DNA of 64,000 bases from positions 1,312,001-1,376,000 of the forward strand of contig OY970229.1 in NCBI GenBank assembly GCA_963714085.1, in the 5' to 3' direction. Positions 1 to 11,088 of the stretch are shown in pieces; the stretch's first letter is position 1; each line of letters starts with the position of its first letter. The DNA is from an uncultured Candidatus Micrarchaeota archaeon (GTDB lineage Archaea > Micrarchaeota > Micrarchaeia > Anstonellales > Bilamarchaeaceae). Below the pieces are notes generated by a model. The model did not search any database and was not told where the DNA came from. It was given only the letters and a program-made list of their open reading frames with translations. A program made the translations under genes and the position numbers.

Positions 1-394
1 CGTTATTTTTCAACAGATCAGAAAAATGAGTAGTCAAAATGCCTTTTATCGTAGGATTTCCGTCTCCAGCTTCAATAATATCATGAACTGTTTTTGCATA
101 ATCGGTCGCAGATGAGAGATTCTGAGCAAGTGCATATTTTGCGACTCCCCGATCCTGTTCATCGCCAGTTTGAACTATCCTGACAAGGACGGCTAGGTAT
201 CCAGGCAGACTTGAGTTATCTTTTGCCTCAGCTATTTTATCCTTAAATCGATTTTGACATGGATGCGATCCTGAGCCATGTTTTTCTTGCTGCAGAGATG
301 GAGATGGCGTGCGCTCTAGGGGTTTGGATACCTGCTGAGGTGACTTTGGAGGTAAACCTCGCCGTGTAGCACTAGCTCCTTCATTTTCTGCCAT
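1..394 (-). CDS. Hypothetical protein, runs off the window edge
   Basis: Read by eye: ATG at 394 (MAENEGASATRRGLPPKSPQQ...), open to base 1; AT-rich. Confidence 0.6.
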   Translation of the reverse strand, partial: MAENEGASATRRGLPPKSPQQVSKPLERTPSPSLQQEKHGSGSHPCQNRFKDKIAEAKDNSSLPGYLAVLVRIVQTGDEQDRGVAKYALAQNLSSATDYAKTVHDIIEAGDGNPTIKGILTTHFSDLLKNN

Positions 395-504
395 TGGCAA
401 ATACATCGACAAAAATATTTATAATCCGTAGCATCATTTGAGAAAATATATCTCGATTATTTAGAGTTTAAGATAATAGATTGGAGCTGATTCACATTGG
501 CAAA

Positions 505-586
505 CGTCTAATCTCCCTCCGACCAAGCCTTAAATAGCTCTTACCTCAGAACCGCCCTCAGTGGAAGGCATAACTTGGCTTTCTTC
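505..586. repeat. Intergenic repeat copy 1 (core CTCAGAACCGCCCTCAGTGGAAGG at 545-568)
   Basis: 42 nt identical to 2129-2170; 38 nt identical to 3064-3101. Confidence 0.95.
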
Positions 587-1933
587 TTACTCTAGCATCC
601 CAACGAAAAACAATGGCCGACGCATATCATCCAGCATGCCAGGGTGAGTAAAGATTATTTTTTGTTTGGTCGTGAATCCCTTGAACTGAGTTCGCCCCTT
701 GTTACGCCCGCCTATTTCACATACCAGATCGTTCACTAGATAATCAGGAGTTTTCTCTCCTCTTGTCCCCTTGAGATAATCTAATTGGATACCAAGACGT
801 GAGATAGCGTCCACGAAAAAATCTTCACGCAACGCTCCTATCGCATCATCATACGATTTGAAAAGCAATCGATATGGCAGGGCGAATAATATCTTTGGCT
901 CTTTGGTAATATTGGTGCCCTTTGGAAGAATACACTTTAGTACAAAAGCTTTTTCCAGCAAATCTACGTATCTCTGAACTTTTGTCTTAGCAATTTGGCA
1001 GTTTTGAGAGATGCTTGAATAGCTAATGCCCTCGCTTTCTGAGCGGCCGATGAAAAGTAGGATTTGGCGCACCTCAAAGGATTCGGCAAGGGTGATGCCA
1101 GAAGCTCGAATCAGATCACGTTCGATGATTGTGTCTAGCATATTGCGAAATTGTGGAAGCGTATCCTGCTGACCAAAAGTGAAAAGGTAATTACTCCCAG
1201 TAAGATAATCCTTAAACAGGGATTCAAAACGCAGATTCAGACCGTAATATGTCCTGCAACGCTCGGTATCTGTTAGATCAGAAAAAGGGAGTGGTTGAAC
1301 TTGGATATCTCTTGAAAAAAAGATAAACTCTCGAAAAGACAACGATAGAACAGAGAACACCCTCACACGGCGTGAGAGATCATATGTGGAGCTATGGAGG
1401 GAAATTGCGGATGAACTGGTAAACACCACTTGTAATTGAGGAAGAAAGTCGTAGATTTTTTTGAGTTCGTTGCCATAGTTTGGATATGCATGGATCTCGT
1501 CTATAAGAAGCAATTTGATGCCTTTGTCCATAAGTTCGTTTGCCAATCCGAAAAGGTCGGTTTCGCTTCCTGTATCGAGTGAGATATAAAACGAAGTTTT
1601 GGCCTGATTATGAATTTGTTTCAACAGCGTACTTTTTCCCACCCCCCTCGGACCGATTAGCGCTATGAAGATGCGTTCTCCTAAATGGCGATTGATCTCT
1701 TCATACACAAAACGTTTCTTGGGATAAGTAGCGCCCTCTTGCCTTGCTTTGTCGCTTAGAGTTTGCTGCTCTTCGTTGGGTACGTTACGAACTCCAAAAA
1801 CTCCCAACCGAGCCGATGGCAAGGTTGTCATATCAACAATACGTCGTGGATCCACACCTTCGGGCGGAAGTTTATGCTCTTCCTTCTTGGCGCTACGACG
1901 TTTGGTTTGTTTTCTATTACTCATACAATTCAT
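587..1933 (-). CDS. AAA+ ATPase (AAA_14/DUF4143-like); start uncertain
   Basis: Walker A GPRGVGKST, Walker B LLLIDEIH, TSSS and DLSRR motifs, C-terminal PD...EIG nuclease-like motif. Confidence 0.85.
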   Translation of the reverse strand: MNCMSNRKQTKRRSAKKEEHKLPPEGVDPRRIVDMTTLPSARLGVFGVRNVPNEEQQTLSDKARQEGATYPKKRFVYEEINRHLGERIFIALIGPRGVGKSTLLKQIHNQAKTSFYISLDTGSETDLFGLANELMDKGIKLLLIDEIHAYPNYGNELKKIYDFLPQLQVVFTSSSAISLHSSTYDLSRRVRVFSVLSLSFREFIFFSRDIQVQPLPFSDLTDTERCRTYYGLNLRFESLFKDYLTGSNYLFTFGQQDTLPQFRNMLDTIIERDLIRASGITLAESFEVRQILLFIGRSESEGISYSSISQNCQIAKTKVQRYVDLLEKAFVLKCILPKGTNITKEPKILFALPYRLLFKSYDDAIGALREDFFVDAISRLGIQLDYLKGTRGEKTPDYLVNDLVCEIGGRNKGRTQFKGFTTKQKIIFTHPGMLDDMRRPLFFVGMLE

Positions 1934-2091
1934 TACACACCAAACTATATAAACCTATCATTTTGGCTAGTATTCATACGAAATGATAGTCATTTTAGAA
2001 TAATTTCAGACAAAATGATAGTTTGTTTATGACCGTGACTTCGCCAGATTTTCGATTCATCGAGCTTTTCCGAGGTAAATTTTCGTCAAAT

Positions 2092-2210
2092 CCCTAACCC
2101 TCCCGGCCAATCATTAAATAGAACCCATCTCAGAACCGCCCTCAGTGGAAGGCATAACTTGGCTTTCTTCGGTACACACTCAGATAACCTCTCTGCATTC
2201 GGCAGGAGCA
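2092..2210. repeat. Intergenic repeat copy 2 (core at 2129-2152)
   Basis: Direct alignment with copies 1 and 3. Confidence 0.95.
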
Positions 2211-2334
2211 CTCTGCTTTTATCTAAGTGTTCCCCCCATTTGGCACCGCGGTGTCAAGTAATTCTCCTAGATATAAACTTGAAAATGTGGGAAGTTTAGG
2301 AGAACCTTAAAATGACATATTCTTATTAGTAAGC

Positions 2335-3003
2335 ATGAAAGAATTACATATGGAAAATTCCTGGTTTTTAATCTCTAGCAAACTGAAAAAAATCAAATTC
2401 AATGGAGATACGGATATTCGGTATACAGAAGAATTTGTTAAAATGTTCATCCTTAAATTTACAAAAAGAGGGGATAGAATCTTAGACCCTTTTGCTGGTT
2501 TTGGTACAACGTTGTTTGTAGGCCAGCGACTGGGACGAACAGTTCTTGGGATAGAATACGACGAAAGTCAATATGAATACATTAACGACCGGATCAAAAA
2601 GCCCTGTAAAATCATTCATGGAAATTCCCTAAAACTCAGATCTTATAAATTGCCAAAGTTTGACTTTTCCATAACTTCTCCGCCCTACATGAGAAACTTT
2701 GATAAGGAAGATCCATTTACAAATTATACAAAAATTGGGAGTTACTCAAAATATTTGAAAGATATTGGAAGAATATACCGGCAGATCAAAAAGGTAATGA
2801 AAAAAAATGCCACAATCATAATCGAAGTGTCAAATACAATTGGTGAGGGCCGTCCCATGACTCCTTTAGCTTGGGACATAGGGAGAGAAATTTCGAAAAT
2901 ATTCTTTTTCGAACAAGAAATAATTTATTGTTCGACGGAAGGCGATCATAGCCACGTTTTAGTATTTAAGAACAAATGGCTGCAAAGTAATCATTTTCAT
3001 TGA
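2335..3003 (+). CDS. SAM-dependent amino-methyltransferase (N4-C/N6-A DNA methylase family)
   Basis: Motif I DPFAGFGTT, catalytic TSPPY; very AT-rich. Confidence 0.8.
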   Translation: MKELHMENSWFLISSKLKKIKFNGDTDIRYTEEFVKMFILKFTKRGDRILDPFAGFGTTLFVGQRLGRTVLGIEYDESQYEYINDRIKKPCKIIHGNSLKLRSYKLPKFDFSITSPPYMRNFDKEDPFTNYTKIGSYSKYLKDIGRIYRQIKKVMKKNATIIIEVSNTIGEGRPMTPLAWDIGREISKIFFFEQEIIYCSTEGDHSHVLVFKNKWLQSNHFH

Positions 3004-3037
3004 AGTTCAGTGTCCAAGTGCAAGCAGCAGTGCAAGT

Positions 3038-3148
3038 CGTCTAACCCCCCTCAGGCCAGAGTATAAATAGCTCTTACCTCAGAACCGCCCTCAGTGGAAG
3101 GTCATTGTCTTTCACACTCAGATAAGCCCTGTGCTTCCGGCAGGAGCA
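3038..3148. repeat. Intergenic repeat copy 3 (core at 3078-3101)
   Basis: Direct alignment with copies 1 and 2. Confidence 0.95.
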
Positions 3149-8574: not shown

Positions 8575-10130
8575 TATTCGAACGGGACAAATATCCTGAG
8601 GAGCCCGGCGTCTATCTCATGAAAGGCGATGATGGGGCCGTGATATACGTGGGCAAGGCCTCCTCGTTGCGTGACCGGCTCTCGCAGTATTTCCTCAAAG
8701 GTAGGGACGTGAAGACCAGCACGCTGGTGTCCCACATATCGGCGATAGATTTCGTGGTGACCAAGGACGCGAAAGAGGCGCTCATACTCGAATCCAATCT
8801 GATAAAGAGCTATCAGCCCAGGTACAACCTCTGCCTCAAGGACGCGAAGCATTTCTCGTACCTCGCGCTCACAGAAGAGCGTTTCCCAAGGCTGCTCCTC
8901 GCGAGGAAGAACACCGCCGGCGCCTTCCGCATCAAGGGGGCGAAGTTCTACGGCCCGTTCGTGGAGGGCTCGAAGAGGGCGATCTCCGCGAGGTACCTCA
9001 GGAAGCTCTTCAGGATACGGATCTGCGGCACGAAGATGCCCAAAAAGGAGTGCCTCCAGTTCCACCTCGGGAACTGCGACGCGCCGTGCGTGGGCAACGT
9101 TGGCGAGGCTGATTATGGAGCGAATGTCGCAGCGCTCCGTTCCGTGCTGGAAGGGAGATTGCAAGCGGGCGTGCTCATCGAATCCCTGCGCAAGCGCATG
9201 GCCGAGGCGTCTGCCGCGATGGACTACGAACGCGCGATGTCTCTGCGCGACCAGATGGAATCGCTGAAGATATTCCTCGACAGGCAAAGAGTGGAAAAGA
9301 AACGCGGTTATGACGAGGACTACCTCTGGCTGCAGAGGATAGGACCTAACCTGCACGTGCAGATACTCCGGAGCCGCCACGGAGTCATCGGAAAGGTGGA
9401 GAAGCATTCCATGGCCATAAAGGAGCAGGAGGAGCCTGAGCTATCCTTCTGCCTCCAATATTATACCGAGATCCCGGACAGGGTGTACTCGAACCTCTCG
9501 GAATCCCAGGACAAAGCGCTCAATCTCGCGCTGGGGACCGAGGCGTTCTCGCACCCTGGCAGGGAGAAAGCCAAAGTGCTGGACATCGCGGCGCGCTCGC
9601 TCGTCATGGGCGAGGTGGACCAATCCGTCCTGAGGCTGCGCGAGAGGCTGGGCCTGGAGAACAACCCGATAACCATAGAGACCTTCGACATATCCACGCT
9701 GTTCGGGGAGGAGTCCGTGGGCTCCATGGTGAGGTTCGTGAACGGCAGGCCGGACAAGGACGGCTACCGCAGGTTCAGGATCAAGACCGTGTCAGGGCAG
9801 GACGATTTCGCCATGATGAAGGAGGTCGTGCTAAGGAGGTACCAGCGCGTCATGAAGGAGGGCGGTCCTTTGCCGGACCTCGTGCTGCTCGACGGCGGCG
9901 CAGGGCAATTGCATGCTGCCATGGACGGGATGGACGAGGCGGGCGTGCGCATCCCAGCGGCAGCGATAGCCAAGAAAGAGGAGGAGATATACCTTCCTAA
10001 CAGGATGGAGACGCTGCGCATGGAGCGCTCGGACCAGGCGCTAAAGCTCCTCCAGCGCTGCAGGGACGAGGCGCACAGGTTCGCGGTGACCTATCAGCGG
10101 CTCAGGCGCGGGAAGAAGGCCAGGGAATGA
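8571..10130 (+). CDS. uvrC: Excinuclease ABC subunit C, lacking C-terminal HhH domain
   Basis: GIY-YIG (PGVYLM..IYVGKA), Cys cluster, UVR, ETFDIS, LLDGGAGQ, RDEAHRFA. Confidence 0.95.
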   Translation: MIFERDKYPEEPGVYLMKGDDGAVIYVGKASSLRDRLSQYFLKGRDVKTSTLVSHISAIDFVVTKDAKEALILESNLIKSYQPRYNLCLKDAKHFSYLALTEERFPRLLLARKNTAGAFRIKGAKFYGPFVEGSKRAISARYLRKLFRIRICGTKMPKKECLQFHLGNCDAPCVGNVGEADYGANVAALRSVLEGRLQAGVLIESLRKRMAEASAAMDYERAMSLRDQMESLKIFLDRQRVEKKRGYDEDYLWLQRIGPNLHVQILRSRHGVIGKVEKHSMAIKEQEEPELSFCLQYYTEIPDRVYSNLSESQDKALNLALGTEAFSHPGREKAKVLDIAARSLVMGEVDQSVLRLRERLGLENNPITIETFDISTLFGEESVGSMVRFVNGRPDKDGYRRFRIKTVSGQDDFAMMKEVVLRRYQRVMKEGGPLPDLVLLDGGAGQLHAAMDGMDEAGVRIPAAAIAKKEEEIYLPNRMETLRMERSDQALKLLQRCRDEAHRFAVTYQRLRRGKKARE

Positions 10131-11015: not shown

Positions 11016-11088
11016 CTGCAGGGACGAGGCGCACAGGTTCGCTGTCTCTTACCAGCGGCTGCGGCGCGGGAAGAAGGCCAGGGAGTGA
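11016..11088 (+). pseudogene. Duplicate fragment of the uvrC 3' end
   Basis: 65/73 nt identical to 10058-10130, ungapped, ending in the same TGA. Confidence 0.92.

Follow-up and report, generated by a model that had tools for sequence, protein, structure and literature searches.

The AT-rich left end of a 64,000-nt stretch of DNA from an uncultured Candidatus Micrarchaeota archaeon, here called the window, is very likely the right part of a tandem genomic island built by site-specific accretion at the 3' end of a tRNA-Glu(CTC) gene. The window (G000:C1:1312001-1376000) belongs to a 1.57-Mb single-contig genome (G000) of 57% GC (0.573), and three repeats lie at its left end (Table 1). A preliminary description of these repeats had proposed a recombination site that is reused for stacking gene units and is not a canonical attC site, with a tRNA gene and a tyrosine recombinase expected leftward. 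This proposal is upheld, both genes being found 3.8 kb left of the window. Stacking in itself is ordinary, as a known way of piling up accessory genes.

The final 11 bases of the tRNA-Glu gene (G000:C1:1308204-1308214) recur as the cores of repeats 2 and 3. These tRNA-end repeats (11-12 nt) stand 5,996 and 6,934 bp from the tRNA core, in the direct-repeat arrangement of a tRNA-targeted island. A 9-nt inverted site lies 8 nt past both the tRNA core and the repeat-2 core, and in repeats 2 and 3 its complement precedes the core by 12 nt. The tRNA-end copies and their flanking inverted sites together point to the tRNA as the left attachment (att) site, attL, to repeat 3 as attR, and to repeat 2 as a full attP-like junction. 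The integrase gene lies beside the att site, its ATG about 205 nt beyond the tRNA core; the translation carries what we take, from the residue pattern, to be the catalytic R-K-HxxR-W-Y motifs, with a weak zinc-ribbon match at the C-terminus. The observed order is tRNA, integrase, 164-aa open reading frame (ORF), 703-aa ORF, arm without core, ATPase, arm plus core plus post-core arm (arm'), methyltransferase, arm plus core, and host DNA. The island measures 6,934 bp from core to core, comprising 5,996 bp with the integrase and ATPase and 938 bp with the methyltransferase. The latter unit (2200-3148) holds the methyltransferase only, with arm' on its left, arm and core on its right, and no integrase or transfer genes, as is characteristic of a cis-mobilizable element (CIME). 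GC is 0.37-0.45 across the island, from the tRNA-Glu to repeat 3; along the window it is 0.34-0.44 up to 3000 and at least 0.54 from 3500, which agrees with the earlier remark that the last repeat lies near the return to host GC. An Rfam scan of the 9-kb island gave nothing besides the tRNA.

Table 1. Features of the tRNA-Glu island (plain numbers are window positions; labels beginning with L are locus labels of the analysis, L001 and L003 being regions of G000)
Feature	Position	Strand	Remarks
tRNA-Glu(CTC)	G000:C1:1308139-1308215		outside window, left
Tyrosine integrase, 405 aa	G000:C1:1308419-1309636		PF00589 E 5e-22; intact
164-aa ORF	G000:C1:1309633-1310127 (L001:17633-18127)		overlaps integrase stop
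703-codon orphan ORF, 5' part	1..412	-	last cargo gene of integrase unit; extends out of window
Repeat 1	505..586	+	att arm without core, abuts ATPase stop; TATA-like box 530-537; predicted +1 560 (from spacing)
24-mer	545..568	+	CTCAGA-type motif, predicted start site and motif mirrored in integrase leader
AAA_14 + DUF4143-type ATPase, cargo	587..1933	-	PF13173 E 6e-23; DUF4143 slightly below cut-off
35-nt imperfect inverted repeat upstream of ATPase	1952..2024	.	also beside related ATPases (L104, L108)
Repeat 2	2092..2227	+	complete attP-like junction; arm with TATA-like box 2114-2121, predicted +1 2144; order: inverted-repeat site 2179-2187, 12 nt, tRNA-Glu core 2200-2210, 8 nt, inverted-repeat site 2219-2227
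Solitary N6/N4 DNA methyltransferase	2335..3003	+	PF01555 E 2e-21; cargo of 938-bp integrase-less unit
Repeat 3	3038..3148	+	attR; arm with TATA-like box 3063-3070, predicted +1 3093; order: inverted-repeat site 3117-3125, tRNA-Glu core 3138-3148, host-side DNA beyond

The 24-mer that the three repeats had been said to share was confirmed at 545-568, 2129-2152 and 3078-3101, as was the TAAATAG kept in all copies. It occurs three times genome-wide, even at 5 mismatches, and is private to G000 among everything searched. Identical blocks measure 42 nt between repeats 1 and 2 (24+18), 38 nt between repeats 1 and 3 (14+24), and 24 nt between repeats 2 and 3. A 22-base pattern run against metagenome contigs gave a single match, within a coding region of an unrelated phage-like contig, and was set aside as chance. 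The 24-mer had been taken for the crossover core, but the core is the 11-nt tRNA end and the 24-mer belongs to the arm. Likewise, a likeness to a tRNA 3' end had been placed at the left edge of the repeats, whereas it is the right end of repeats 2 and 3 that carries 11 nt of the tRNA-Glu 3' end, repeat 1 having none; a decayed tRNA at the left edge was rejected, as relatives have an imperfect palindrome there. The statement that the repeats separate single AT-rich genes fails for the first segment, where the integrase and the 164-aa ORF precede the orphan ORF. In the proposed mechanism, the integrase would carry out recombination at the 11-nt tRNA end, with a CTCAGA-type inverted site on either side. 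Repeats 2 and 3 would bound an integrase-less unit of 938 bp, which the integrase could excise alone or with the rest. Repeat 1 may be a former junction from which an old deletion, reaching as far as the ATPase stop, removed the core and right arm and thereby joined the ATPase to the integrase unit, and later exchange between arms (gene conversion) would have produced the identical 24-mer.

Relatives of the integrase were sought in 176 genomes of this DPANN order and occur in 59 of them (E <= 1e-40). Forty regions around these relatives, mostly from the top of the ranked list, were combined with 24 loci from another search, overlapping locus sets being merged and duplicates dropped by sequence. 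A profile built from 10 arms was then applied to 77 related loci, and its matches, classified by eye, fall only at element ends before cores or before an integrase ATG. Twelve are distinct arms at the ends of elements, each followed by a tRNA-end-like core (7 of the 12 served as profile seeds); a single weak partial arm also precedes a core, and in 9 distinct loci the match stands right in front of an integrase start. The cores that follow the arm differ, with Glu in forward and Thr, Leu and Gly in reverse orientation. The closest integrase (80% identical; L058) targets tRNA-Gly in the opposite orientation, and its deduced attP, when inverted, equals repeat 2 at 40 of 49 nt, with four differences in the core centre. 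The inverted site behind tRNA-Glu is present in 5 of 30 loci, that of G000 included, and most family members lack the arm there. At L155, a one-gene integrase-less unit with a repeat-2-type arm stands directly at tRNA-Glu. Among the 43 tRNAs called in G000, six others have convincing downstream 3'-end repeats (judged by eye, amid chance 10-11-mers), and three weak arm copies in the genome (BLAST/nhmmer) sit immediately before such tRNA-end cores.

At L041:19930-20045 and in L154, two cores lie about 90-120 nt apart with no gene between them, as empty att units. The tRNA-Leu(TAA) of G000 (G000:C1:487085-498410; L003) has three downstream 3'-end repeats, and no integrase of the family is present in the region, which thus forms a tandem of integrase-less units; at one of its junctions, an arm of one type and the post-core arm from the tRNA-Leu(GAG) element meet. 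At tRNA-Thr(GGT) and tRNA-Lys(TTT) (G000:C1:159331-160222 and 1472726-1473562), a unit of 0.7-0.8 kb is in each case closed by a 12-16-nt tRNA-end repeat. At a distance of 19 kb from the tRNA-Glu island, tRNA-Asn carries an element of 30.7 kb (G000:C1:1258476-1289329), whose repeat measures 34 nt and whose integrase is 41% identical. A non-coding block of 130 nt left of the window (G000:C1:1310096-1310245; L001:18096-18245) has three direct repeats of CA(G/T)TGTG type along with an inverted copy and an AT-rich box. About nine distinct related elements have this block at 69-80% identity, right after the integrase or right before the arm; it may be an origin, an oriT or a regulatory region.

Each arm is probably an archaeal promoter facing the core, a reading less firm than that of the island and derived from motif spacing. 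In the sister integrase group, arm sequence precedes the start by 22-23 nt (TATA to ATG), with no Shine-Dalgarno (SD) sequence, in 7 of 9 loci. The TATA-to-ATG distance in the host (724 ORFs) peaks with 22, 40, 27 and 19 matches at 21, 22, 23 and 24 nt, compared with 0-12 elsewhere, and 36 of 60 integrase leaders show the same peak. Because the arm stands directly before the sister-integrase ATG at the host's leaderless spacing, it reads as a core-facing promoter, and the TATA-to-start spacing puts the predicted +1 of all three repeats inside the 24-mer. The predicted promoter elements are distal, on the same strand as the integrase, and point towards the core, which is the geometry of the Pcirc promoter of ICEclc, where an outward promoter at the integrase-distal end is described as being placed upstream of the integrase promoter (Pint) on circularisation (PMC5812530). 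By the same logic, the arm promoter would sit upstream of the integrase gene in a circle, as a Pcirc-type switch; within the tandem, transcription from repeat 2 would enter the methyltransferase, and that from repeat 1 would enter the ATPase in antisense. Unlike in the published description of ICEclc, the putative promoter here is of archaeal TATA type, its motif is mirrored in the integrase leader, and it is repeated at each tandem junction. Bacteria are known to have core-facing promoters that turn on the integrase or the following cassette, and no archaeal Pcirc-type case was found by title or abstract in the open-licence literature.

An inverted copy of the bases at the predicted +1 stands immediately 5' of the integrase SD; the genome has seven copies of the 10-mer, four of them in the island. 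Across the elements with both ends (11 of 13), which are kin and not independent, the arm compares with its own integrase leader at 9.2 and with other leaders at 6.5 (permutation p 1.4e-4), two elements having been dropped (no TATA box by pattern) and two TATA offsets moved one base by hand. In one-per-clade subsets the own pairing ranks 1/120, 1/120 and 1/24, and within the closest clade some arms fit another leader better than their own. The mirrored motifs may be protein-binding (arm-type or operator) sites that couple recombination with autorepression of the integrase, and putative binding sites are favoured over an RNA helix by analogy with KplE1 IntS. There, an att arm overlaps the integrase promoter, and binding sites close to it could repress it (PMC2951348); the corresponding arrangement here is putative and, unlike KplE1, comes with no identified directionality factor. 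A rather unlikely alternative places the coupling at the RNA level, where the first 8-13 bases of a circle-junction transcript would pair just 5' of the integrase SD and switch translation, or, in a variant, a small RNA born in the arm would act in trans; both compete only with the DNA-operator step and share the same island. The best helix indeed starts no more than 2 nt from the predicted +1 in 8 of 11 elements (no null computed), and 10 of 11 elements have G-U pairs, but several mismatches are C-A/A-C (L104, L058). The duplex of the window's element reaches -19 to -20 kcal/mol vs -8 for the local hairpin, and in the minimum free energy (MFE) fold the 5' end pairs with the leader for 6 of the 10 valid elements (the L041 row was dropped as invalid, as a core variant gave a 52-nt construct), although such folding is expected of any inverted repeat and 4 of the 10 are unpaired. 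Moreover, the predictions of the effect on the SD disagree (unpaired 0.20 in the ensemble, first element only; 0.71 in the MFE), L155 keeps the arm motif but has no integrase leader, and most relatives carry the leader motif downstream of the integrase's own TATA box and upstream of the ATG, where transcription from that promoter would not include it. A joint version of these ideas appears unlikely. According to it, excision would yield a 180-300-nt RNA from the arm across the attP core, whose covarying helix with the integrase leader would act as an RNA-level circle sensor, while the family would retarget tRNAs through a few core bases and a flipped central att segment, sharing one-gene defence-like cassettes across tRNA loci and genera.

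Besides the kinship of the elements and the manual adjustments in the leader comparison, several observations bear on, or weigh against, the island with its putative promoter-bearing arms. The 11-nt core alone has nine copies in the genome and is significant only together with the arms. No circle, empty site or strain-level change of order was seen. One DNA run and no RNA run were listed for the stretch. Contigs of the DNA run (about 1-6 fold coverage) are thin over the island, one of them ending just past the tRNA and inverted site; they contain no circle or deletion joints, and no listed contig spans a repeat. In a look-up of the empty site within the genus, the G001 contig stops at the tRNA 3' end, the neighbours in G002 differ, and the right-flank gene was not found in either of the two genomes. 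Forty-two integrase loci have no arm match, so the arm is either not universal or too divergent for the profile. Finally, no purine-rich B recognition element (BRE) is evident by eye before the TATA-like box.

Repeat 1 ends at 586, immediately before the ATPase stop codon (587-589), just as the preliminary description had it. The same text had regarded this repeat as a chimera that switches inside the core, with 38 nt shared with repeat 3 and 42 nt with repeat 2. The blocks exist, but both counts contain the 24-mer, so that the flanks share only 14 and 18 nt, respectively. Both halves of repeat 1 are common alleles in the arm family, and the ATPase joint is common to another genus; a recent crossover was therefore rejected as the origin of the repeat. 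The locus in that genus, L104, runs from tRNA-Glu through an integrase stub and a coreless arm at the stop of the same ATPase to an arm and core. It matches window 524-2025 at 77% DNA identity with an identical arm-ATPase joint, which argues that the joint is old and not an assembly chimera. In L114, a shorter coreless arm adjoins an ATPase of 53% identity, L115 has the intact arm-core-arm'-ATPase-arm form, and the other 11 of 14 non-self ATPase loci have no arm match at the stop. Since repeat 1 resembles repeat 2 (91%) more than its counterpart in L104 (77%), the arms were presumably homogenised after the joint arose; the two arms of L104 are 69% alike overall, with two short private blocks in common. 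The mosaic of repeat 1 is thus better read as later homogenisation among arms, and the simplest history is that deletion of the core fixed the ATPase to the integrase unit. Another coreless arm (L122:2500-3500) faces the 3' end of a gene that is presumably Fic-like, upstream of a methyltransferase unit.

The methyltransferase has copies of 86-99% identity in seven other genomes of the 176. Of its eight non-self loci, five have an upstream core of Leu type and one of Glu type (L124), and contig ends cut the remaining two; a further copy (L147) starts directly behind tRNA-Glu. Such changes of arm type also suit a decidedly unlikely alternative, in which the arms are portable promoter-like repeats and genes swap by homologous recombination between them, independently of the tRNA core. 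Repeat 1 would then be a duplication left by an [arm + ATPase] circle crossing into an arm, the event earlier described as a switch inside the core. This alternative draws on the runs of identical bases in repeats 1/2 (42) and 1/3 (38), on the recurrence of coreless arms that face the 3' end of a cargo gene (L104, L114, L122), and on the homology of the methyltransferase unit to its relatives, which covers about 2257-3037 and ends at the edge of repeat 3. Promoter-bearing intergenic repeats are also mentioned for halovirus HF2 (PMC8707807). However, it presupposes a coreless joint, where L115 has the intact arm-core form, and homologous exchange does not require the exact core spacing of repeats 2 and 3. 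The identity of the joint in the window and L104 further indicates that it was inherited and did not arise repeatedly.

Tandem accretion at the tRNA can also be placed among known systems. CIMEs and accretion islands consist of units stacked at one tRNA-type target and split by a short repeat of the target 3' end (PMC5704250; Dehalococcoides ssrA islands, PMC3146451). As here, units that lack an integrase retain attL/attR, the att sites at internal junctions are chimeric, and old units may become fixed (PMC5704250, PMC3146451). The differences are the Micrarchaeota-type archaeal host, the one-gene units of less than 1.5 kb, and the lack of conjugation genes in the island; moreover, cargo passes between Glu-type and Leu-type arms, and the central att segment occurs in either orientation. 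Archaeal integrases that target tRNAs (SNJ2 family, thaumarchaeal cryptic integrated elements) use a short att core at the tRNA acceptor end with conserved P/P' arms (PMC5861418, PMC6563490, PMC8371274), and tandem integration and integrase-less remnants have already been described in archaea (PMC8371274, PMC6563490). No SNJ2-type three-gene operon lies upstream of this 405-aa integrase. Judged by sequence features, the verdict is an archaeal variant of tandem accretion with putative cis-mobilizable elements. No open-licence literature was found on Micrarchaeota genomic islands with integrase and tRNA.

An integron-like cassette array with atypical attC sites, examined with attC criteria from one report (10.1101/2022.02.06.479319) and the general box consensus, is largely refuted and extremely improbable. 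Repeats alternate with single AT-rich accessory genes as in attC arrays, and integrons are reported to exist in archaea (10.1101/2022.02.06.479319). Yet the integron R box that had been seen at the left edge is a perfect heptamer in repeat 3 only and lacks a partner box; no repeat has an R''...R' pair, and neither strand forms a stable hairpin (z -0.8 to +0.8). The integrase fails as IntI type, with 46 bits for TIGR02249 (cut-off 265) and 28.6 for NF011946 (cut-off 435), the predicted crossover lies at the tRNA 3' end in which the repeats terminate, and the cargo lies on both strands. An assembly chimera has next to no probability, since, despite coverage of about 1-6 fold and the lack of a contig of the one run that spans a repeat, independent genomes have the same arm-ATPase joint and junction architecture.

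Altogether, the att anatomy has been mapped for an integrase family that is frequent in this DPANN order and is apparently one of the chief means by which single accessory genes are acquired. Two 80%-alike integrases with different tRNAs, opposite orientations and near-identical att flanks offer a clean test of target-choice change, and what most merits an experiment is the putative promoter arm, whose motif the integrase leader mirrors, together with the core that has been flipped and retargeted. Among the cargo, the ATPase matches a candidate defence model (PDC-S01; PDLC04789, E 1e-30), and the inverted repeat upstream of it is likely its operator. The orphan ORF gave no Pfam/NCBIfam match (two parts scanned separately, and the C-terminal part) and no PADLOC match for the whole; it has two distant homologues besides itself among 8000 scored candidates. 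The 164-aa ORF resembles (E 6e-7) the C-terminal part of a VirB4-like ATPase of 751 aa that G000 carries in its tRNA-Leu(GAG) element. At its end (window 2970-3003), the methyltransferase is a few codons longer than its relatives, whose stop falls inside the aligned end. Outside the island, the region L001:12379-14256 encodes what we take from its translation to be an RtcB-like RNA ligase with an apparent mini-intein. Further right, the last 73 nt of uvrC are repeated (89%; window 10058-10130 and 11016-11088) beyond an argC-like gene on the opposite strand, as a gene-end duplication that brackets a small insert.

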